A stretch of DNA of 45,590 bases. It comes from a virus. A program made the translations under genes and the position numbers. The notes beneath the pieces were generated by a model, which saw only the letters and a program-made list of their open reading frames with translations, had not been told where the DNA came from and did not search any database. The DNA lies in the IMG/VR virus record IMGVR_UViG_3300031228_000012, positions 1 through 45,590 of that record; one strand, written 5' to 3'. This document shows positions 3,037 to 45,590 of this stretch, piece after piece (positions within the stretch are counted from its first letter, which is position 1; the number at the start of each line of letters is the position of its first letter).

Positions 3037-3056
3037 CAGACCCGGAAACGCAAAAA

Positions 3057-3097
3057 AGCCCCCTCCCAGGAACCCCGAAGGGAACCCGAGAGGGGGC
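3057..3097. terminator. Bidirectional terminator hairpin, near-identical arms to 214..263
   Basis: aaaaaagccccctccc...gagagggggcttggttgttg. It sits between the convergent 2749..3036 (+) and 3108..3389 (-). Confidence 0.75.
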
Positions 3098-3107
3098 TTG
3101 GTTGTTG

Positions 3108-3389
3108 TCAGTCGCTTATCTTCTGGACGCTAAGCTGGTCACCCGGCCTTAGCGCATGGACTTGGCGGGACATTGGGACCAGGGACTCGTCGGTCTCGGA
3201 GTCGAACAACCAGATCTCGACCGTGCGCCCAAGGAGTGATGGTTCCCACGGATCGACGTTGTCAACGTCTACGATCAGATCATCCAACGAATCGCCAACC
3301 CGCACCCGGTAGTTGCAGGGTCCGGTGTTTCCGATACGCTCCCCAGTGGTGACATCCACGGCCTGAATAAACCCACGCCGACTCTTCAT
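3108..3389 (-). CDS. Hypothetical protein (93 aa)
   Basis: Internal ATG of track ORF 3108..3473, preceded by GGGAGGGAGG. Confidence 0.65.
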   Translation of the reverse strand: MKSRRGFIQAVDVTTGERIGNTGPCNYRVRVGDSLDDLIVDVDNVDPWEPSLLGRTVEIWLFDSETDESLVPMSRQVHALRPGDQLSVQKISD

Positions 3390-3421: not shown

Positions 3422-3865
3422 TCAAAACTCGCCGGCAGACGCTTGGAGGCAGACCAGCCCGAGCGACCGCCACATGTCGACCACCTGCTGGCGGTCATCG
3501 AGCACGAGCCGGACGTTGTAGTTGTGCCGGATGTGCTTGTCGAACAGCTCCAGCTTCACTTCGTGGTCTTCCCGCTCGTCGCCATCCGCCCTCATGTACA
3601 GCTCCACGTCGTACGTCACCCACCTGCGGAGCCACCTCCTGGTGTCCGCCATGCCGACCTCATTCCGGGCGGTGATGAACACTGGCCGGATTCCCATGGC
3701 GTGCTGAAGGCTGAACACGACGTTGACGACCGGCTGTATCGGCAGGTCCTCCAGGACCCGTGTCATGTCATACGGCGACCGGGCCTGGCGCTGGGATACC
3801 GTGCCATCGATGTCCACAAGGACGACCTTGGGCTTGTCGATCAGGGGTTCATACTTGAGGGTCAC
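3422..3865 (-). CDS. HAD-superfamily phosphatase (polynucleotide 3'-phosphatase / nucleotidase-like)
   Basis: DxDxT motif VLVDIDGTV, then ITAR, a conserved K, and LDDR (HAD motifs I-IV). GTG start overlaps the upstream stop (GTGA). Confidence 0.8.
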   Translation of the reverse strand: MTLKYEPLIDKPKVVLVDIDGTVSQRQARSPYDMTRVLEDLPIQPVVNVVFSLQHAMGIRPVFITARNEVGMADTRRWLRRWVTYDVELYMRADGDEREDHEVKLELFDKHIRHNYNVRLVLDDRQQVVDMWRSLGLVCLQASAGEF

Positions 3866-6141: not shown

Positions 6142-8016
6142 TCACCAAAGACCGGCTGCCTTGATTTCTGCATCCGCCTTCTCCCGCAGTTCCCAGTCCG
6201 GGTCTCCGTTCTCATCGACCTGGTACTCGGAACCCCAGTGCTTCCCTGCCACCACCGGGTCTGTGCTAACCAGCACCGGCCCCATCTGCTCGGTCATCAG
6301 CTCACCGATGCGGTTGGCGCCCCACTCCGCTTTCTCCCGAGGCAGCGAGACCACGACCTCGTCATGGACCGGCAGTCGCAGGTACGGGGTGAAACCGGCC
6401 TTGTGGAGCTTCACCAAGCCCCGGCAGGTGACGTCCCGAGACGTCGACTGCACGAGGTAGTTCAGCGCCGAGTAGGCCCTGTCCGCGTCGACCGGCAGCC
6501 TCCGGCCGGACGGAGTAGTGATGAATCCGTCCCGTCGTGCTTCCTTCTGGAGCTGCTTGGACAGCCGGGCAACACCCGGGTACGCCCTGTCGAACCCGTC
6601 GACCACTGTCTGCGCGGTCTCCTTGTCGAGGCCGGTCTGCTCCTGCACCGTCTTGACACCACCGCCGTAGACACGGCCGAAGTTCACGACCTTGGCGTAC
6701 TTCCTCTCCTTGCTGTCCTTGGTGATGTGCTCGCCAAAGGCAGCCCGAGCGGTGATGAGGTGAAGGTCTGCATCCCGGCTAAACGCCTCGATCATGTTGT
6801 GGTCACCCGAGAGGGCGGCCAGCACACGAAGCTCCTGCGCCTTGTAGTCGACCGAGGCGATGTCGTGCCCCGGGTCTGCCACGAAGCAGCGCCGGATCAT
6901 CCAGTCCGAGGACGGGAGTGTCTGCGCCGGAATCCCCGTGATGCTCATGCGAGCGGTACGCGCTCGCAGCGAGTTGATCGATGCATGGCACCGGCCGTGC
7001 TCGTCAGCCGTGGCAAGGAAAGTGTCGACCCAGGTCGACCTCCACTTGCCTGCCTTCTTGGCCTCCGTGATAGCGATGGCCAGCTCGTCCCCGGCCTCGA
7101 TGAGCGGCTTCAAGACCGCCTTGTCGACCTGGAACTTGCCGCTTGCTGTGCGCTTCTCCAGCTTCACTCCCCGCTGGATGAACGCCTCGGCTACCTGGTC
7201 CGTCGAGTTGACGTTCTCGACGCCCAGCGTTGCTGCGATCTCCTTGTACCGCTCCTCCTGCCCTAGCAACCACGCCGACAAACGCTCGGTATACTCCCGG
7301 TCGAGCAAGAACCCGGTCCGCTCCATGTACGAGCAGATCTCCGAGACCTCGTGCTCGAACGCGAGCAGCGGGCGGGACGATGCGGGCACGAGCGGCAGCG
7401 TCTTCTTCGCCAGCCGTGCGGCCAGAATCGGGTCCATGCCCGCGTAGAGCAGGTAGGTTGGGTCGAACAGGTCGACCTTCTCCCAGATCTTCGCCTTCGT
7501 GGTCTTGTACTGCCGGGCTAGCGCGGTCATCGAGCCCTTGACCTCGTCGGCCACGGCCGGGTCGATGTACGCCCGGGTAAGGGACTCAAGGCCGTGGCCG
7601 TAGCCACCTTCCTCTTGCCCCCGTGGGTCGACCAGGTGGGACACGATCTTGGTGTCCCTGACCTTCGGCCAGAGCTTTTCCATAGGTACACCAAGGTGTT
7701 TGTCCGCCTCCTGGAGGTCGAACGAGCCGTTCTGGAACCACAACTCGCTGACCCCGAGCAGGGTCCGCCGAGTGTCCTCGGCGAACTGACCGCCCAGCTC
7801 TACCGGGATGACCCACGACTCGTGCGCGGTGCCAAACTGCCAGAGCCGGGTACGGTGTCCCGGTGCGTAGGTATCGAGGCCCGTAGCCTCTGAGTCGGCA
7901 GCGAGGACCTTGACGTTGGCCCGGACGAATGTCCTGAAGTCCTCCAGGTCCTCTTCGACCTCAGCGACCTTGATCGAGACCGTGTCGCCGTCGACCTTGT
8001 GTCGGATCTCCTTCAT
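6142..8016 (-). CDS. DNA polymerase I (family A) with N-terminal 3'-5' exonuclease-like domain
   Basis: Motif A DYKAQELRVLA, motif B RKYAKVVNFGRVYGGG, motif C LPVHDEVV, Exo I-like AADSEATGLD. Confidence 0.95.
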   Translation of the reverse strand: MKEIRHKVDGDTVSIKVAEVEEDLEDFRTFVRANVKVLAADSEATGLDTYAPGHRTRLWQFGTAHESWVIPVELGGQFAEDTRRTLLGVSELWFQNGSFDLQEADKHLGVPMEKLWPKVRDTKIVSHLVDPRGQEEGGYGHGLESLTRAYIDPAVADEVKGSMTALARQYKTTKAKIWEKVDLFDPTYLLYAGMDPILAARLAKKTLPLVPASSRPLLAFEHEVSEICSYMERTGFLLDREYTERLSAWLLGQEERYKEIAATLGVENVNSTDQVAEAFIQRGVKLEKRTASGKFQVDKAVLKPLIEAGDELAIAITEAKKAGKWRSTWVDTFLATADEHGRCHASINSLRARTARMSITGIPAQTLPSSDWMIRRCFVADPGHDIASVDYKAQELRVLAALSGDHNMIEAFSRDADLHLITARAAFGEHITKDSKERKYAKVVNFGRVYGGGVKTVQEQTGLDKETAQTVVDGFDRAYPGVARLSKQLQKEARRDGFITTPSGRRLPVDADRAYSALNYLVQSTSRDVTCRGLVKLHKAGFTPYLRLPVHDEVVVSLPREKAEWGANRIGELMTEQMGPVLVSTDPVVAGKHWGSEYQVDENGDPDWELREKADAEIKAAGLW

Positions 8017-8548: not shown

Positions 8549-8565
8549 GTTGTGCGACTTAAAGG
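8549..8565 (-). promoter_or_regulatory. Distal box of the leftward-arm junction motif (partial unit)
   Basis: + strand gttgtgcgacttaaagg, abutting stop codon 8566-8568. Confidence 0.5.
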
Positions 8566-9943: not shown

Positions 9944-9975
9944 CCTTTACGTTGTGGTGTTGTGTGACTTAAAGG
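9944..9975 (-). promoter_or_regulatory. Junction unit CCTTTA-N20-TAAAGG (stop codon of 9969..10736 inside one arm, SD of 9282..9932 inside the other)
   Basis: + strand cctttacgttgtggtgttgtgtgacttaaagg. Confidence 0.6.
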
Positions 9976-11379: not shown

Positions 11380-11411
11380 CCTTTACGTTGTCGTGTTGTG
11401 TGTTTTAAAGG
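11380..11411 (-). promoter_or_regulatory. Junction unit CCTTTA-N20-TAAAGG
   Basis: + strand cctttacgttgtcgtgttgtgtgttttaaagg. Stop of 11405..12001 lies inside the distal arm and the SD of the methyltransferase gene inside the proximal arm. Confidence 0.6.
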
Positions 11412-13976: not shown

Positions 13977-13998
13977 GGTTCTCCTTTCTGTGGGCATG

Positions 13999-14022
13999 AA
14001 AAAGGCCCCTCGATGGGGGCCT
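13999..14022 (-). terminator. Rho-independent terminator upstream of the primase gene
   Basis: On the - strand: AGGCCCC-CATCG-AGGGGCCT followed by TTTTT. Confidence 0.65.
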
Positions 14023-14065
14023 GAAGATTGGGCAGAACCGTACCGGTTTCAGTACGCTTTTGCCC

Positions 14066-15781: not shown

Positions 15782-15813
15782 CCTTTAGTATTTTGTTCTG
15801 TGTGTTTTAAAGT
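15782..15813 (-). promoter_or_regulatory. Junction unit CCTTTA-N20-TAAAGT
   Basis: + strand cctttagtattttgttctgtgtgttttaaagt. Stop codon 15815-17 is adjacent. Confidence 0.55.
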
Positions 15814-16652: not shown

Positions 16653-16684
16653 CCTTTGTCTAGTCACGTCGTGCGGATTAAAGG
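16653..16684 (-). promoter_or_regulatory. Junction unit CCTTTG-N20-TAAAGG
   Basis: + strand cctttgtctagtcacgtcgtgcggattaaagg, abutting stop codon 16685-87. Confidence 0.55.
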
Positions 16685-17819: not shown

Positions 17820-18467
17820 TTAGGGCAGCTTCTTAGGCCGCCGGAAAATGATGTGCGCTTCGTCCGACATCTTGGCCAGCCGGTTAACCCGGATAATCAA
17901 GTCGTCGTCTCTTTCCTCGCGCGGGACATAACGCCACCCGCCGTGCGACTGGGTGGGAGTGGGTTGAACACTCGGGTCGTATTCCAGCACCACGCCAAGG
18001 CTTTCTAATTTGCCGTACCAGGTACGTAGCTTGTGGATCTCCGCATCGGATAGCCGACCACTGCCCAGGGCAACGTACTTGACGTGCTCGCGCAGCCTGT
18101 GGTACCCGCTTGAAATCTTGTGATCGGGCGACACCTCCCACGGGATGTGCTCCATGGCCTCCTGGCGAGGGTCCTTGTACGGCTCCCCACCGTGCTTCTC
18201 GTTCAGGTGCCAGTTCACCGCTTGCGGAGTCACGCCGTATTCCAGCGCGATTTCCGTGCGCGTGAAGCCTTTGTTTAGTAGCCGTATGATCTCTTCTCTG
18301 GATAGCCCAGTGTTCATGTACAGTGCTCCCTGTCTCAGCCACGTGCCCGCTTTACCTCCGGCCTTGTGCGGAGTAAAGGGTACCAGGTTCGGTGGCTGGG
18401 CTGGAGTGGTCCGAACTAGCGAAACCTCTACGCGGGGTTGGCGCGGGGTTGGTTCCCGGGCCTTCAC
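17820..18467 (-). CDS. HTH DNA-binding protein, candidate immunity repressor/early regulator (start uncertain, GTG 18467 or ATG 18317)
   Basis: LSREEIIRLLNKGFTRTEIALEYGVTPQAVNWHL. It is preceded by a repeat-rich untranslated region of about 270 bp. Confidence 0.75.
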   Translation of the reverse strand: MKAREPTPRQPRVEVSLVRTTPAQPPNLVPFTPHKAGGKAGTWLRQGALYMNTGLSREEIIRLLNKGFTRTEIALEYGVTPQAVNWHLNEKHGGEPYKDPRQEAMEHIPWEVSPDHKISSGYHRLREHVKYVALGSGRLSDAEIHKLRTWYGKLESLGVVLEYDPSVQPTPTQSHGGWRYVPREERDDDLIIRVNRLAKMSDEAHIIFRRPKKLP

Positions 18468-20440: not shown

Positions 20441-20466
20441 TGCCCCCACTCCCCATTACTTTGGGT

Positions 20467-20522
20467 CCGTTAATGCATGGCCAAGCACGCGCCTAAGCGC
20501 GTGCCTGACTAAGCGCTAACGG
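20467..20522 (-). repeat. Structured intergenic element, copy A
   Basis: Outer stem ccgtta/taacgg. Inner stem gcacgcgc-ctaa-gcgcgtgc. Shared CATGGC and GACTAA boxes. Confidence 0.65.
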
Positions 20523-20528
20523 GATGTG

Positions 20529-20687
20529 TCAGTAACGAGCACGCTCGCGATCAGCGGCGTACGACTCAGCTTCCCCAACCGACTGGAATAGAATCATGTT
20601 GCCGTTGGCGTCATAACAGAACGTCGCGGTGGCTACGTTCCATACGTAGATACGGTCGAAGGACACGCGCGCCTGGAACCACTGCAT
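20529..20687 (-). CDS. Small hypothetical protein (52 aa)
   Basis: ATG after TAGGGAGTGACA. Confidence 0.45.
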   Translation of the reverse strand: MQWFQARVSFDRIYVWNVATATFCYDANGNMILFQSVGEAESYAADRERARY

Positions 20688-20696
20688 TGTCACTCC

Positions 20697-21059
20697 CTAG
20701 AGGTAGTCGCGGTCGTTGTCGAATTCGATCGGGTCGGTACCCGCGTCCACATTCTTTGCCAGCCGTTCGGCATGGCGGTGCGCGCCGGAGCGTGAGGAGT
20801 AACGCTCAAAACCGGTACTGGTCACGGACACGGAACCATCACCGTTGTCACGGACGAATCGCACTGTGTAGAGACGCGGGTAATTCCCCAGAGCATCACG
20901 CTCACTGGTGACAAAGAATCTGCCACCGTAAAGCGACTCGCTCACGCGTGACCGAAAGAACCGCATGGTGTCCGCACTGAAGTAGTGGGGGTTACCGTGC
21001 CGCGTGACAAAGCGCTTAAGCGCGTCGATATCCTCGAACTTTGGGTATGAGTAGGTCAT
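20697..21059 (-). CDS. Hypothetical protein, tandem paralog 1 (120 aa)
   Basis: Starts MTYSYPKFEDIDAL. It shares the 5' leader TGGGAGACAGAAACA-ATG and alignable sequence over the full length with 21156..21521. Confidence 0.7.
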   Translation of the reverse strand: MTYSYPKFEDIDALKRFVTRHGNPHYFSADTMRFFRSRVSESLYGGRFFVTSERDALGNYPRLYTVRFVRDNGDGSVSVTSTGFERYSSRSGAHRHAERLAKNVDAGTDPIEFDNDRDYL

Positions 21060-21155
21060 TGTTTCTGTCTCCCATCTAGTTGCCCCTGTACGGGCGGACA
21101 ATGCCTAGCCGGTACCGAGTACCGGCGAGACACAATCAGTCCATTAGCGGTGATC

Positions 21156-21521
21156 TCAGAGCCATTCGGCGTCCGTGTCGTACTCGAACGGGTCGGTACC
21201 CGCGTCGACGTTCGCAGCTAGCCACTGGGCGCGCCGATGTGCGGCACTGCGCGATGTGAACCACTCGCGGTGAGCATCGGTAACATCTACGTGCCCACTG
21301 CCGTCGTTGACCCGCACAAAGCGCACTGTGTACGTGCGCGGGTGATCGCCCAGGATGCCGTTCCGTTCGCTAGTCACGAAGAACCGACCGCCGTAGAGAA
21401 CGTCACTAATGCGGGAACTAAAGAACCGCAACGTGGCCGCGTCGAAAAAGTGGTTACCGTGTCCCATGACAAAGCTACGTAGCGCGTCGATATCACGGAA
21501 CTGTGGGTATGAGTACGTCAT
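21156..21521 (-). CDS. Hypothetical protein, tandem paralog 2 (121 aa)
   Basis: Starts MTYSYPQFRDIDAL. Shares YGGRFFVTSER, YTVRFVR, NVDAGTDP with paralog 1. Confidence 0.7.
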   Translation of the reverse strand: MTYSYPQFRDIDALRSFVMGHGNHFFDAATLRFFSSRISDVLYGGRFFVTSERNGILGDHPRTYTVRFVRVNDGSGHVDVTDAHREWFTSRSAAHRRAQWLAANVDAGTDPFEYDTDAEWL

Positions 21522-21559
21522 TGTTTCTGTCTCCCAGCTAGTGATTCGGCTAAGCATCT

Positions 21560-21673
21560 TCAGCGGCTAACGGTGACGATTCGGCCATCCGCGTATCGGA
21601 GCAGCCATCCCTTTTCAGTGCGCGTGACTGTCACGACGTCGCCGTGCCGGTCGCGGTATGTGCCTTCACTCAT
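21560..21673 (-). CDS. Possible small protein (37 aa)
   Basis: ATG after GGGGAGATAAAGCT. Confidence 0.35.
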   Translation of the reverse strand: MSEGTYRDRHGDVVTVTRTEKGWLLRYADGRIVTVSR

Positions 21674-21675
21674 AG

Positions 21676-21706
21676 CTTTATCTCCCCACAGTATGTGATT
21701 TAAAGG
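21676..21706 (-). promoter_or_regulatory. Junction unit CTTTA-N20-TAAAGG
   Basis: + strand ctttatctccccacagtatgtgatttaaagg. Confidence 0.5.
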
Positions 21707-21762
21707 CCGCTAAAGCATGGCCGAGCACGCGCTATCACGCGTGCTCGACTAAACCCCAACGG
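21707..21762 (-). repeat. Structured intergenic element, copy B
   Basis: Inner stem gagcacgcg-ctatca-cgcgtgctc. The outer stem pairs fully only in the - sense RNA (one G-U pair). It abuts stop codon 21763-65. Confidence 0.65.
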
Positions 21763-22338
21763 TCACTCGTCCATCGGCGTGCCGTCTTGCCACTCGTCAT
21801 CATGAAACCGCTGAGCGCCAGTCCAGAATCCAGCGCGGTAGTCATCGCTGTCTGGCGACTGGTCACGAGACGGGCGGATGTCTCCTCCGTAAGCGTTCGC
21901 GTAGTTAGCAGCGCCCCACCCGTGGTCCACACCGCGTGCGAACAGTTCCGAGCTTTCGTCAAAGTCACCAAGCGGGACACCGGCGTCGGCCGTAGGGTGC
22001 CATGCCTCCTCAGTCCAACCCGTCGTGCCGTAGAACTTACGCTTGAAGTGAATGGCGTAGGTCCAGACAGTGCCCGTAGCAAAGTCCTGGCATTCGTCAA
22101 CGCCGTAGAACGTGCCGTCGCCGTTGTCTTCTGCGTGGCTATCTACTATGTCGCGCACGCGCTCCCACAATTCGGGGTCCTGCTCACTCATATTGAGCAG
22201 CGGCTCAACGTCGTTACGTGACTCGAATAGCGTAGTGCGCGACCAACTAGGGTCAATCCACCCGTGCCGTTCTGTGTAATCGTCCTCGCCGTGGTGGTCC
22301 ACTGCATCAGCAGTCATGAAAGCAAAGATATTTCCCAT
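21763..22338 (-). CDS. Highly acidic, Trp-rich hypothetical protein (191 aa)
   Basis: Track ORF. AGGGAGCGAACA RBS. By my count about a quarter of residues are D/E, with 9 Trp. Confidence 0.7.
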   Translation of the reverse strand: MGNIFAFMTADAVDHHGEDDYTERHGWIDPSWSRTTLFESRNDVEPLLNMSEQDPELWERVRDIVDSHAEDNGDGTFYGVDECQDFATGTVWTYAIHFKRKFYGTTGWTEEAWHPTADAGVPLGDFDESSELFARGVDHGWGAANYANAYGGDIRPSRDQSPDSDDYRAGFWTGAQRFHDDEWQDGTPMDE

Positions 22339-22369
22339 TGTTCGCTCCCTAATCTCTAAGACCCAAAGG

Positions 22370-22427
22370 CCATTAGGCCATGGCTAGCCACGTGCTGTTG
22401 AGCACGTGACCGACCAAAGCGCAATGG
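22370..22427 (-). repeat. Structured intergenic element, copy C
   Basis: Outer stem ccatt/aatgg. Inner stem cacgtgct-gttg-agcacgtg. It abuts stop codon 22428-30. Confidence 0.65.
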
Positions 22428-22763
22428 TCAGGAAGTCGTGGCGTAGCCGTCGCGGCAGAGCAACAGCGACGTGTCGGCAACGAGGTAGCGGCATCCCTTG
22501 TGAGTGACGCCGAACTCAGTCACCGTACCAACCCACTTGACCCGCTTGGACGGCACGAACTTCGCGTGCCCGTCCTCTATCCGGAACTTGCCACCTGCCG
22601 TGGCAACCCACCGGACATCGGTGTCGGTAGCGTGCGAACGGTGGGCGACGTCTAGTGCCTCATGCCCCGTCTTCTGCGGCTGCGGCTCCGAAGCGGTGAC
22701 CACGCCACCGAGTGCGAGCATGGCGGAAAGGCCGATAACGGTGGTGGTGAGTATCCTGCGCAT
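22428..22763 (-). CDS. Secreted hypothetical protein (111 aa) with N-terminal signal peptide
   Basis: Internal ATG after AAGGGAGAAG. MRRILTTTVIGLSAMLALGGVVTASEP. Confidence 0.65.
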   Translation of the reverse strand: MRRILTTTVIGLSAMLALGGVVTASEPQPQKTGHEALDVAHRSHATDTDVRWVATAGGKFRIEDGHAKFVPSKRVKWVGTVTEFGVTHKGCRYLVADTSLLLCRDGYATTS

Positions 22764-22841
22764 GGTGCTTCTCCCTTTATTTTCTTGTGACGCGATACTG
22801 ACACCGCGTGCCCGCTGCCGAAGCAACGGACCACGGAGTCA

Positions 22842-22961
22842 CTACCGTGTGGTAGCGGCGATTGAGTAGTAGTCGATCAGGCCGGCGATACGGTCAACGT
22901 CGACCGTCATGGCTAGTGAGTAGGTGTCGATCAGTTCGATGATGCGTTCGATGTCAAGCAT
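22842..22961 (-). CDS. Small hypothetical protein (39 aa), first ORF of the leftward arm
   Basis: ATG after CCAGGAGGGCACC. Confidence 0.4.
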   Translation of the reverse strand: MLDIERIIELIDTYSLAMTVDVDRIAGLIDYYSIAATTR

Positions 22962-23657: not shown

Positions 23658-24092
23658 TTGCTTTGCGCATGGTTAGACGATGGCTCGCCGTGCGGCGAGA
23701 CCGCAGAAGAGCACATGAACATCCCGCTGTGTGGGGAGCACCGGCTAGTGCAGAAGAGTCGCGTAGCTGTCGCTCGCGGGAGTCTAGCTCGGCAAGCAGC
23801 CAACTACTACCCGCTAGATGAATTCCCCGGCTTCTGTTACTTCGCGCTCCTGCCCGACAGCTCGGTCAAGATCGGGTACTCAAACACAGAGACGCTCATG
23901 TCTAAGCGGTTCAAGGCACTCGGCCGTCAGCATGGCGGACCGGTCGTCAAGCTCGCTGTAGTTCCCGGCGGATTCGTAGCGGAAGCCGTCATGCACGATC
24001 GATTCGCTGAGAGTCGAATACCGGGCGATGGTGAGCGGTTCCGATACACCACTGACATTGCGTCATTCATCGCAGACAGCCAAGCACTCTAA
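23658..24092 (+). CDS. T5orf172 / GIY-YIG-like domain protein with N-terminal Cys/His finger
   Basis: TTG start after GGGGGATAAGAGAC. FCYFALLPDSSVKIGYSNTETLMSKRFKAL ... ERFRY. N-terminal C..C..H..C..H. Confidence 0.65.
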   Translation: MLCAWLDDGSPCGETAEEHMNIPLCGEHRLVQKSRVAVARGSLARQAANYYPLDEFPGFCYFALLPDSSVKIGYSNTETLMSKRFKALGRQHGGPVVKLAVVPGGFVAEAVMHDRFAESRIPGDGERFRYTTDIASFIADSQAL

Positions 24093-24388
24093 TGCCGTGG
24101 TCTACGTCCAACCGACGACAGTCACTGCCGTCCAACTGGACGGCGATACGTATCGATGTACTTCGAGATGCCGGGTACCGATGCGAGATACGAGGACCGT
24201 TGTGCTCGGTTCACGCCACTGACGTTGACCACATCCGCCCAGGCAACGACCACCGACGCAGCAACTTGCGTGCCGCATGCTCCCCCTGCCACGGGCGTAA
24301 GTCGGCTGCTGAGGGACACGCACGCAGAGCCGAGCTTCGGGCACGTCGGCATCGGCCGGCAGACAGACACCCTGGTTCGCTTAGCTAG
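24092..24388 (+). CDS. HNH endonuclease
   Basis: CEIRGPLC...VDHIRP...NLRAACSPCH. The position next to the terminase genes is typical of cos phages. Confidence 0.9.
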   Translation: MPWSTSNRRQSLPSNWTAIRIDVLRDAGYRCEIRGPLCSVHATDVDHIRPGNDHRRSNLRAACSPCHGRKSAAEGHARRAELRARRHRPADRHPGSLS

Positions 24389-25098: not shown

Positions 25099-25352
25099 TG
25101 GCCCGCTCGAAGCGCACTCTGCGGGTCGCTCTGACCCCTGCTGCGCTGGCCCAGATCCTCCCTGCGCGGTTCTGGGAGCCTGAGCTGTCCGATGACCTGC
25201 TGGGCAGTCTCCGGGTCTACCTGGACGATCTCACCGCTTGGGTGGTCGAGCAGGGAATCACGGCCAACCCCCGGGCAATGGCCCTTCAGATCATGTCCGA
25301 GCTCGGAACGTCTCCGGCTGAGTGGTACCGACGAGCAATGGAGACACCATGA
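25098..25352 (+). CDS. Hypothetical protein (84 aa)
   Basis: Track ORF. TGATG overlap with terS. Confidence 0.6.
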   Translation: MARSKRTLRVALTPAALAQILPARFWEPELSDDLLGSLRVYLDDLTAWVVEQGITANPRAMALQIMSELGTSPAEWYRRAMETP

Positions 25353-25507
25353 GGTTCACGCTGAGGCTGTTCGGGTTCGAGATCGTGAGCCTGGACGTCG
25401 AGGAGCTGGTCGACGCAGTAGTCGAGCTGGACTCGGACACCGAGATAGATGACGATAACGAAGATGAAAGCCTGCCGTACGGGTTCGCTCCTCCCGTAAC
25501 GGCGTAA
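25349..25507 (+). CDS. Small acidic hypothetical protein (52 aa)
   Basis: Internal ATG in an ATGA overlap with the upstream ORF. Confidence 0.45.
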   Translation: MRFTLRLFGFEIVSLDVEELVDAVVELDSDTEIDDDNEDESLPYGFAPPVTA

Positions 25508-25837
25508 GACCGGCGGCTCACCCCTTCCTAAGCCTCTCCACGATGCTCAAATGGGAAGGGCGGGGCCGCCCTTGGTTCGGGGTTGAGCGCGGGTGTTTCC
25601 TCCTCCTTTACGCCTGCGCTCCCCCGCCAAACTTCCCGGCCGTAAAACGAGCCGTCCCGAGACAGGGTCGGTCGGCCGGTTCACCGGTTCCGTGGTCGCC
25701 TCTGCTCTAGATCTGCACCGATCGCAAGGAGCAAGCCACCACGGATAGCGCCCTGGCCCATTTTCGAGGCGTGATTGCCGTCCCTAACCCGAGACGGCGA
25801 AATCGGGGCACCCCGCTCGGTGCAAGAGCGGGTTCTT

Positions 25838-44657: not shown

Positions 44658-45590
44658 ATGACACAGTTCCTACTCGACATCTCCCACTGGCAGGGCGGCA
44701 ATCCTGACCTCGCGCAGGCTAAGCGTGAGGGGATTGTCGGCGTCATCCTCAAGGCCACCCAGGGCTCCAGCTTCGTAGACTCGGACTTCACGTCCAACCT
44801 CGCCCGTGCCCGTGCAGCGGGCTTGCTCGTCGCTGCGTACCACTACCAGGAGGCGAGCGTCAGCGCTGCCGCACAGGTGGCGCACATCAAGAGGAACATC
44901 CCCCAGGACGTCCCGGTTATCCCGGACGTCGAACACGGTAGCGGGCACACGAACAAGACCCGGACCATCGTCAAGCTCCTCAAGGAGGCTGGCTACCAGG
45001 TCCCGCTGTCGTATATCCCCGGGTGGTATTGGCAGTCGATCGGCTCCCCGAGCCTCGCTGGACTCCCCCCGCTCTGGGCGTCCCGGTACCCCGACAACGT
45101 CCAGAGCTACTACAAGGACGAGTACGCCCAGGTCGAGCGCTCGTTCATGCACTTCTGGGACAGCTACGGCGGGCTCGACGTCAAGCTGCTCCAGTTCACC
45201 AGCTCGGGCCGAGTGGCCGGATACGGCCCTCTGGACGTCAACGCATTCCGTGGAACCTACGCAGAACTCGAAGCCCTGTTCACAGGGAAGAATGGAAGTG
45301 AGGACGAATTGTCCGCTGAGCAGTACAAGGCACTCAACAACAAGCTGACTGAACTCCTTACCGCCGTCCAGAAGGTCCCGGCGCAGTCCGCTACGGAGCT
45401 GCTGAACCGCGACGTCATCGACGTCCCGTTCGAGTCCGAGGACAAGCAGTGGAAGGTGAAGTACGCGCTGGCCGGTATCTGGCGCCAGGCTGACGCTGCC
45501 CGCGATGCTGCGCTGAACGACGGCACGGTAGACGTCTCTGCGCTAGCCGACGAGCTGCTGCCGCACCTACAGGGTGCGCTGGCAACCGTG
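44658..45590 (+). CDS. Endolysin, N-terminal GH25 muramidase domain (3' end continues at 2..196; full length about 333 aa)
   Basis: AAAGGA RBS. LLDISHWQG, VILKATQG, AAYHY, LLQFTSSGRVAGYGPLDVNAF. The ORF is open to the window end, which is why it is absent from the track. Confidence 0.9.
   Translation, partial: MTQFLLDISHWQGGNPDLAQAKREGIVGVILKATQGSSFVDSDFTSNLARARAAGLLVAAYHYQEASVSAAAQVAHIKRNIPQDVPVIPDVEHGSGHTNKTRTIVKLLKEAGYQVPLSYIPGWYWQSIGSPSLAGLPPLWASRYPDNVQSYYKDEYAQVERSFMHFWDSYGGLDVKLLQFTSSGRVAGYGPLDVNAFRGTYAELEALFTGKNGSEDELSAEQYKALNNKLTELLTAVQKVPAQSATELLNRDVIDVPFESEDKQWKVKYALAGIWRQADAARDAALNDGTVDVSALADELLPHLQGALATV
45464..45590. repeat. Second copy of the 127-bp terminal repeat
   Basis: Identical to 1..127. 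Confidence 0.95.

Follow-up and report, generated by a model that had tools for sequence, protein, structure and literature searches.

Conserved hairpins behind the stop codons of early genes define a putative RNA family of uncultivated actinophages

The genome of an uncultivated phage, IMG/VR record IMGVR_UViG_3300031228_000012 (45,590 nt, analysed over its whole length and called the window below), carries three similar hairpin-forming elements, A, B and C, each located just behind the stop codon of a leftward early gene. A previous sequence-only reading described them as two-stem elements with compensatory changes and proposed RNase III-type processing sites, 3' stabilisers, or recombination hotspots shuffling the neighbouring ORFan genes. 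The analysis presented here shows that A, B and C belong to an undescribed, covariation-supported structured-RNA family of uncultivated actinophages. They are very probably selected, structured cis-acting RNAs, while a specific mechanism, namely a processing or stability element acting through an RNase III-type cut or as a 3' stabiliser, can be proposed tentatively, by analogy with other phages.

The window represents a complete phage-like genome with a circular assembly. Its large terminase shares about 62% identity with the counterparts in Rhodococcus phage RGL3 and Cluster A mycobacteriophages, and its layout is L5/RGL3-like, with structural genes transcribed rightward from about 26.7 kb, three tRNAs just upstream of them, and a long leftward operon, between about 23.0 kb and about 3 kb, that contains replication genes together with small genes of unknown function. 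With the start of the first leftward gene near 22961, elements A, B and C fall within the first 2.5 kb of the leftward early operon. As described earlier, this is an ORFan stretch of slightly lower GC content (0.58 versus 0.62–0.65), whose genes have no known function except two DUF7447 paralogues.

All three elements were found at the positions reported before, 0–6 nt past the stop codons of leftward genes (Table 1). A starts 6 nt past the TGA at 20529-20531, while B and C start 0 nt past the TGA codons at 21763-21765 and 22428-22430; the next ATG codons are at 20441-20443, 21671-21673 and 22336-22338, respectively. The distance from the end of an element to the next leftward start codon is 23–33 nt, and each of these starts has a Shine–Dalgarno sequence. 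The outer stems, the boxes GGCCATG and TTAGTC/TTGGTC, and the GC-rich inner hairpins also agree with the earlier description, and C is the window copy nearest to the family consensus (GCUUUGGUC ... AGCCAUGGC).

Table 1. Location of elements A, B and C and of their parts in the window.
Feature	Position	Strand	Description	Basis
Element A	20467..20522	-	complete hairpin, about 26 helix positions and UUAG loop	sequence, fold, covariance models
3' box of A	20475..20482	-	GGCCAUGC in RNA, helix positions 16'-9'; pairs with 5' box	
Inner GC-rich hairpin of A	20483..20506	-	10 bp and UUAG loop	RNA fold
5' box of A	20507..20514	-	GCUUAGUC, helix positions 9-16; U11 of the U·U mismatch and A13·C13' mismatch	
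Element B	21707..21762	-	complete hairpin	sequence, fold, covariance models
3' box of B	21715..21722	-	GGCCAUGC	sequence, alignments
Inner hairpin of B	21723..21746	-		RNA fold
5' box of B	21747..21754	-	GUUUAGUC	sequence, alignments
Element C	22370..22427	-	complete hairpin	sequence, fold, covariance models
3' box of C	22377..22385	-	AGCCAUGGC, contains palindrome GCCATGGC	
Inner hairpin of C	22386..22411	-	11 bp and CAAC loop	RNA fold
5' box of C	22412..22420	-	GCUUUGGUC	sequence, alignments

Folded as minus-sense RNA, A, B and C reach minimum free energies of -38.3, -40.5 and -35.3 kcal/mol, with z-scores of -6.7, -6.6 and -5.5, and none of 200 shuffled sequences was as good in any of the three cases. 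The plus-sense folds are 5–12 kcal/mol weaker for all three elements (z-scores of -3.4 to -4.1). The minus-sense fold of B includes six G·U pairs, and its outer stem does need a U–G pair in this sense, as had been claimed. The proposed anatomy of two stems with unpaired boxes proved wrong, however. Both the folds and the alignment of the family show that the whole element is a single continuous imperfect helix of about 26 positions (25–28). The 5' and 3' boxes are base-paired with each other within it, so that TTAGTC/TTGGTC and GGCCATG make up opposite strands of a single duplex.

With helix positions numbered from the base and a prime denoting the partner on the 3' arm, positions 1–6 form an outer stem of variable sequence and position 7 is usually a mismatch, followed by GCU paired with GGC at positions 8–10, a U·U mismatch at position 11, UGGY paired with GCCA at positions 12–15, a variable pair or mismatch at position 16, and a GC-rich inner stem of 7–12 bp closed by a loop of 4–8 nt. 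The mismatches at positions 7, 11 and 16 are fixed, and the conserved mid-helix duplex consists of GCUUUGGY and GCCAUGGC with the U·U mismatch inside. Position 13 is an A·C mismatch in A and B, a G–C pair in most copies of the family, and an A–U pair in the second copy of a provirus contig, L028. The mid-helix boxes, especially GGCCAUGG, are near-invariant, and the GCCAUG core of the 3' box shows no variation in any of the three family alignments (A4, A5 and A7), while both flanking stems vary freely.

Covariance models, the use of which the sequence-only reading had envisaged, recovered exactly three copies in the 45.6-kb genome, with E-values of about 1e-13 to 1e-21 and the next match at only 11–14 bits, as well as homologues in related contigs of uncultivated actinophages. 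On the minus strand A scored 73.5 bits with model R1 and 58.7 bits with model R2, B scored 79.8 and 60.8 bits, and C scored 66.9 bits with R2. Contig L012 (JGI 3300065592) was reached through a homologue of the 191-aa protein whose gene lies between C and B, and it carries three copies with the same boxes and different compensated stems; among the contigs with homologues of this gene it is the only one with the family, which is absent from L004, L010, L011 and L181-L184. Pattern scans revealed two copies in L028, an IMG/VR contig, and five copies, including a variant subfamily, in L168/L177 from a groundwater metagenome. A membrane protein flanked by elements in L012 and L177/L168 has homologues in the larger contigs L185/L186, L187 and L188, where R2 matches most of the junctions within extended series of small genes on one strand; in L187, matches occur at about 17 of the 20 junctions among 21 consecutive genes. 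Every copy is in gene sense, lies between a position overlapping the stop codon and about 15 nt behind it, and precedes the next ribosome-binding site, and the gene-sense strand always outscores the other strand with the covariance model.

The phages bearing these elements are distant from isolates, with the best protein match being 38% identity to Cluster J mycobacteriophages. The proteins encoded on either side are mostly unrelated between phages, yet the boxes are conserved. In searches of INPHARED by megablast and blastn with the region, the elements and the relatives, no relevant similar DNA was found among deposited phage genomes, and a literature search returned no published description of the hairpin family. 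Rfam 15 gave no match in the elements at the gathering threshold and only spurious matches of 11–15 bits at E-values up to 10. Of the 24 matches of a box-pattern scan of IMG/VR only L028 is real, and of 23 in metagenomes L168/L177 are real and L161 is possible; a first exact-pattern scan of IMG/VR including the inner CACG core yielded no matches, and protein-based IMG/VR searches gave nothing useful. At least 120 matches in 185,579 species genomes were scattered singles in unrelated taxa that looked like chance matches; most did not fold like the element, and no host repeat family was evident among the matches listed.

Two subfamilies are distinguishable in L185/L186, L187 and L188. The CCAUGG-box type includes A, B and C, and some of its copies carry a 5' box GCAUGGUS that places an A–U pair at the position of the U·U mismatch. 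The second type, GCUAGCGAACAUCGGUG - hairpin - GGCCGUGACCGCUAGGUCA, resembles the first, and the two may share an origin. L012 contains two further families of intergenic post-stop hairpin repeats, at 1800-1896 and 2268-2352 and at 2778-2835 and 3626-3690; the latter (GAUCAnCGGUGG ... GCCGUGACCG) corresponds to the second subfamily, of which L185 and L187 have many copies. In the second L028 copy (6388-6464, minus strand), the terminal hairpin is replaced by a 35-nt insert with TGTCAAAACTTGACA, and a related GTCAAGTTTTGAC is located upstream of the L028 operon at about 7960-7985; an operator or promoter motif embedded in the element is possible. The family is absent from RGL3, the closest isolated phage, which has only generic post-stop hairpins. 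Two more stable post-stop hairpins occur in the same early stretch of the window (22764-22841 and 21060-21155, minus strand); they have no boxes and were missed by the models. Together with the RGL3 hairpins, they suggest that a hairpin behind the stop codon is a general requirement, to which the boxed family is one solution.

The compensatory changes claimed from the window alone are thin there, because A and B are about 80% identical, and become abundant once the relatives are added. In alignment A4 (8 copies, hand-registered) 94.6% of the helix cells are paired and 14 of the 23 pairs changed on both sides; the corresponding values are 95.8% and 16 of 23 in A5 (11 copies, also hand-registered), and 94.9% and 14 of 23 in A7 (18 rows, aligned by model R2). 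None of 500 column shuffles reached the observed pairing in any of the three alignments, and sliding the pairing register by 1–3 columns reduced pairing to 31–46%. The pairs of the inner stem covary across the family. Pairing is also kept in nine A7 copies that were outside the training set of R2 and were found by this model (L188 669 and 1031; L185 9893 and 10795; L187 6823, 7324, 7983 and 8860; L168 1748). The slid-register controls and these independently found copies are the stronger covariation evidence.

The helix is asymmetric with respect to the strand. There are 31 G·U against 9 A·C cells in 8 copies, and 51 against 11 in the 17 A7 copies in sense orientation, the latter count indicating that the structure is selected in the coding strand; of 14 family copies, 11 fold better as the sense strand. 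Altogether, the covariation, the excess of G·U over A·C, and the higher model score of the sense strand bear out the earlier view of a conserved structured element working in the leftward gene-sense strand, and we infer that RNA, rather than single-stranded DNA, is its active form.

We propose that, after the ribosome has completed the upstream gene, the intercistronic spacer of the leftward polycistronic early transcript folds into this very stable helix, and that a factor specific for double strands, most likely host RNase III, would recognise it. Cutting of this helix would separate the early messages and leave hairpin-protected ends; alternatively, the uncut helix could be a barrier to 3' exonucleases. 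In either case, the element would set the relative stability and yield of individual early ORFan messages. This processing or stabilising function is ranked first because pairing in transcript sense, a helix of 25–28 positions with fixed mismatches, recurrence between early cistrons and the lack of a U-tract resemble the sites of phages T7 and SP82.

The early region of T7 contains the RNase III sites R0.3, R0.5, R1, R1.1 and R1.3, and RNase III substrates of this kind have internal mismatches and a helix length similar to that of the elements (about 2.3–2.5 turns here). As is generally known for T7, several structurally conserved hairpins are placed between successive early cistrons of one polycistronic transcript, each with a helix of about two turns, internal mismatches and no U-tract. 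A, B and C likewise lie in gene sense between early cistrons and form a covariation-supported double-stranded RNA helix of at least about two turns with mismatches, and the expected outcome, separate messages with hairpin-protected 3' ends, would be alike. There are also differences: there is no sequence similarity and no Rfam match, the host is actinobacterial, paired sequence-conserved boxes with a U·U mismatch occur instead of the asymmetric internal loop of T7, and relatives carry up to about 17 copies per operon. The Bs-RNase III sites in early mRNAs of SP82/SPO1 are repeated early stem-loops with conserved sequence and structure in a Gram-positive host; their sequences and hosts are unrelated to those described here. 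As for stabilisation, the REP/BIME elements are well known as repeated intercistronic hairpins able to stabilise the upstream message against 3' exonucleases, although they are an enterobacterial host-chromosome family of hundreds of copies. By analogy, the closest functional counterparts of the hairpin family are the RNase III sites of phage early transcripts.

Several observations weigh against this assignment. We know of no RNase III requirement for sequence-specific boxes, and the 3' box GGCCAUGG is palindromic and more conserved than pairing needs; both properties could point to recognition by a sequence-specific protein or at the DNA level. Three copies in L012/L168 fold as well or better in antisense, and the strand asymmetry is no strict proof of RNA, because G·T wobble is tolerated in folded single-stranded DNA of the same strand. 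The alignments themselves call for caution, since A4 and A5 were registered by hand, A7 was fitted to a model, the copies are related and the shuffle counts are not probabilities; the pairing percentages are inflated because members were recognised partly by their fold.

The statement that the elements are not classical terminators is well founded. No run of five or more U follows A, B or C, the longest being UUU located 4 nt beyond the helix, while the terminators of the genome itself consist of a hairpin and a U-tract (211-265, 3054-3108 and 13977-14065), and a terminator scan of the window does not list the three elements; they are therefore not terminators of the local type. Two of these terminators, 211-265 and 3054-3108, share 76% identity and have the form of a terminator on either strand. 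A weaker version of termination, in which U-less partial terminators (attenuators) would step transcription down along the early operon, is decidedly unlikely. In phages L5 and D29 the early leftward transcript falls by more than 90% with no canonical terminator (PMC5712189). The hairpins are very stable, GC-rich and located directly after coding regions, and U-less terminators have been proposed for Actinobacteria. However, the same genome closes operons with classical hairpin and U-tract terminators, a helix of about 26 positions far exceeds what termination needs, the conserved internal boxes have no role in intrinsic termination, and some 17 serial terminators in one L187 operon would all but abolish expression of the distal genes, except if each one were very weak. 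In addition, mycobacterial RNA polymerase is generally known to require a U-tract in vitro.

The boxes themselves bring in another explanation, an RNA site for a sequence-specific protein, either of the phage or a host factor other than RNase III, which would control translation downstream or modify the polymerase in the manner of nut/put sites. Such a protein stays in play because the near-invariance and palindrome of the 3' box exceed the known needs of RNase III, and we regard it as unlikely. The near-invariance of the mid-helix boxes, above all GGCCAUGG, between stems that are free to vary is what such a site would be expected to display; the paired boxes approximate a two-fold symmetric CCAUGG duplex that would suit a dimeric binder, and the U·U mismatch is conserved in the canonical subfamily, although the variant subfamily has an A–U pair in its place. 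No protein common to all element-bearing contigs was found in the DNA available. Direct occlusion of initiation is unlikely, since the next ribosome-binding site and start codon are outside the helix at a variable spacing of 5–20 nt, and anti-termination sites normally occur once per operon rather than at each gene. A boxA-like reading of CGCUUUGG was set aside; the box is base-paired.

Readings at the DNA level are less likely. The 13-bp asymmetric stoperators of Cluster A, bound by the repressor, are intergenic and oriented (PMC5712189). Like the elements, they are multi-copy sites in phages of the same L5/RGL3-like architecture. The L5 stoperator consensus GGTGGMTGTCAAG has six matches at two mismatches in the window against 2.6 expected, none of them in A, B or C, and identity with L5 stoperators was rejected as the defining motif is absent from the elements. 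Operator-like DNA sites with a comparable role, at which a dimeric regulator would bind the palindrome GGCCATGGCC, are most improbable. It is true that the 3' box is a perfect palindrome of 8–10 bp in many copies and that the sites are intergenic and in a single orientation, as are stoperators (PMC5712189), but A and B carry GGCCATGC, which is not palindromic, and a DNA site needs neither a complementary 5' box, nor a fixed helix length, nor compensatory changes in the flanking stems. GCCATGGC is not enriched elsewhere in the genome, and an explanation by over-representation of restriction sites or palindromes was dismissed for the same reason.

A better stoperator candidate in this genome is the asymmetric repeat CCTTTAAnnCnCACrAC, found only on the minus strand, with perfect copies at 8549-8565, 9959-9975, 11395-11411 and 16668-16684 and imperfect ones at 15797-15813, 18363-18379 and 21690-21706. 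The copies are at or overlap stop codons, at the start of short spacers of the leftward operon and always in gene sense, one of them directly after element B, and the repeat is possibly a stoperator-like or leader motif of this phage.

The extended start-associated sequences (ESAS) of Cluster K phages are imperfect inverted repeats with a variable spacer, situated in spacers of more than 50 bp between non-structural genes, and their function is unknown (PMC3203893). They share with the elements the occurrence of inverted repeats in a single orientation upstream of a subset of actinophage genes, and differ in having 17-bp arms of conserved sequence tied to the 13-bp start-associated sequence (SAS) GGGATAGGAGCCC upstream of the start codon (PMC3203893), whereas in the elements the helix ends and the terminal hairpin vary and only the mid-helix boxes are conserved. 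The window contains one match to GGGATAGGAGCCC at two mismatches against 1.5 expected by chance, and an SAS/ESAS identity was rejected, as the defining motif is not above chance.

The proposal of recombination hotspots received indirect support only. A comparison of gene content at the junctions, one of the checks suggested with it, was carried out for L185 and L187: blocks of nucleotide homology in their early regions start and stop at elements, with different genes between them, and 9 of 12 block ends (in L187 coordinates) are located within 13 nt of an element versus 18% for random positions. L012 and L168 share an orthologous 86-aa gene with an element in front of it; its position in the gene order differs between the two contigs. 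No close relative differing in gene content from the window was found. The idea of recombination junctions is thus supported by blocks that begin and end at elements, but the effect is inseparable from ordinary exchange at gene boundaries, since most of the intergenic space is taken up by the elements. As one conserved sequence recurs at many gene junctions, homologous exchange between phages at the elements is probably a by-product.

A primary function as DNA recombination sites delimiting ORFan cassettes, either by homologous exchange, as for the T4 promoter-stem-loop elements, or through a folded single strand, as for integron attC sites, appears quite improbable. The coincidence of block ends with elements and the relocated 86-aa gene with its element fit this explanation, as do the arrays running gene-hairpin-gene-hairpin in a single orientation and the location of the window copies in a lower-GC ORFan stretch. 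However, the coincidence is confounded with gene-boundary mosaicism, plain exchange needs sequence rather than pairing, which here is kept by compensatory changes and G·U pairs, and the conserved middle and varying ends of the helix are the opposite of attC R boxes or of the terminal repeats of transposons; the gene lists show no integrase or integron-type recombinase beside the arrays. A miniature inverted-repeat transposable element (MITE) or transposon remnant was rejected on similar grounds: the variation is at the helix ends and the conservation in the middle, and target duplications are lacking.

Of the two models, the T4-type elements are generally known as repeated intergenic stem-loops that flank small ORFan early genes and mark module boundaries. 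Their early promoter has no counterpart at the hairpins, and this part of the proposed likeness failed: a sigma-70-type promoter scan found none at A, B and C, where the 23–33 nt contain only a Shine–Dalgarno sequence before the start, although non-canonical promoters are possible. Moreover, covariation keeps the pairing, which recombination alone does not require. The attC sites follow directly after the stop codons of promoterless cassette genes in a single orientation and conserve structure over sequence, with fixed unpaired positions and a variable terminal structure. In the elements the base of the helix lacks RYYYAAC/GTTRRRY and the polarity is reversed, with GTT on the 5' side and AAC on the 3' side; the bases, such as CCGTTA...TAACGG, CCGTG...CACGG and CTGACG...TGTCAG, are variable and opposite in polarity to attC, the conserved part is in the middle of the helix, and the better-folding strand is the coding strand. 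Identity with attC was therefore rejected for the absence of R''/R' boxes at the helix base. No IntI-type integrase was found in the gene and Pfam lists around the arrays, which is a weak negative result as the contigs are partial.

In a bolder version, which we consider very unlikely, the hairpins would be the junction sites of a phage gene-cassette system, a counterpart of integron attC arrays in which each early ORFan gene is one unit bounded by a site of conserved structure. On this view the site would fold in the displaced coding strand or be read as a palindromic duplex, dedicated or host recombination would swap, insert or delete cassettes there, and the RNA structure would be a second use or a consequence of the same sequence.

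Coding explanations were also considered for the boxes. Use of the box AUG as a start codon was rejected: 9 of 23 copies have it in the reading frame of the downstream gene, about the chance rate of one-third, and in A, B and C it meets a stop after one codon and has no Shine–Dalgarno sequence before it. The three short reading frames (20476-20470, 21716-21710 and 22380-22374, minus strand) read AUG CAU UAA, AUG CUU UAG and AUG GCC UAA. In at least one case, L012 4993, the box AUG misled the gene caller into extending the downstream gene. The tiny plus-strand reading frames that the elements contain (MAKHAPKRVPD and similar) were discarded for lack of conservation in C.

Some other features of the window were noted. 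Positions 1-127 are an exact 127-nt terminal duplication of 45464-45590, which represents an assembly overlap, and the genome is circular or circularly permuted with a length of 45,463 bp. The sequence is contig k141_370666 of the ENA metagenome assembly ERZ27256897, and the same phage is also present in a Logan assembly. The DUF7447 paralogues are arranged in tandem at 20697-21059 and 21156-21521 (minus strand); over a stretch of 91 nt comprising the 5' leader and the N-terminal coding region, they share 85% identity. The rightward arm, just beyond the divergent region as seen from the early operon, opens with genes for a GIY-YIG/T5orf172-type endonuclease (23658-24092, plus strand) and an HNH endonuclease (24092-24388, plus strand), the latter 50% identical to a protein encoded in L012. 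A match to the Rfam abiF RNA motif RF03085 at 25523-25560 (plus strand; 44.3 bits against a gathering score of 37) is flanked by a small rightward gene (25322-25507) and the tRNA cluster; a nearby abiF-type gene was not identified.

The post-transcriptional organisation of actinobacteriophage early operons is almost unstudied, and the transcriptomes of L5 and D29 contain abundant processed early RNAs with unexplained 3' ends (PMC5712189). The hairpin family provides a defined, mutable, covariation-supported RNA module that is open to testing. If its members are indeed processing or stabilising sites, the family would be the first of this kind to be defined in actinophages and could serve as a portable insulator for synthetic operons in high-GC hosts. 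The finding exceeds three local repeats, and the family is associated with mosaic module boundaries; given that homology blocks end at the elements, it is a concrete candidate for the sequence at which the ORFan genes of these phages shuffle.

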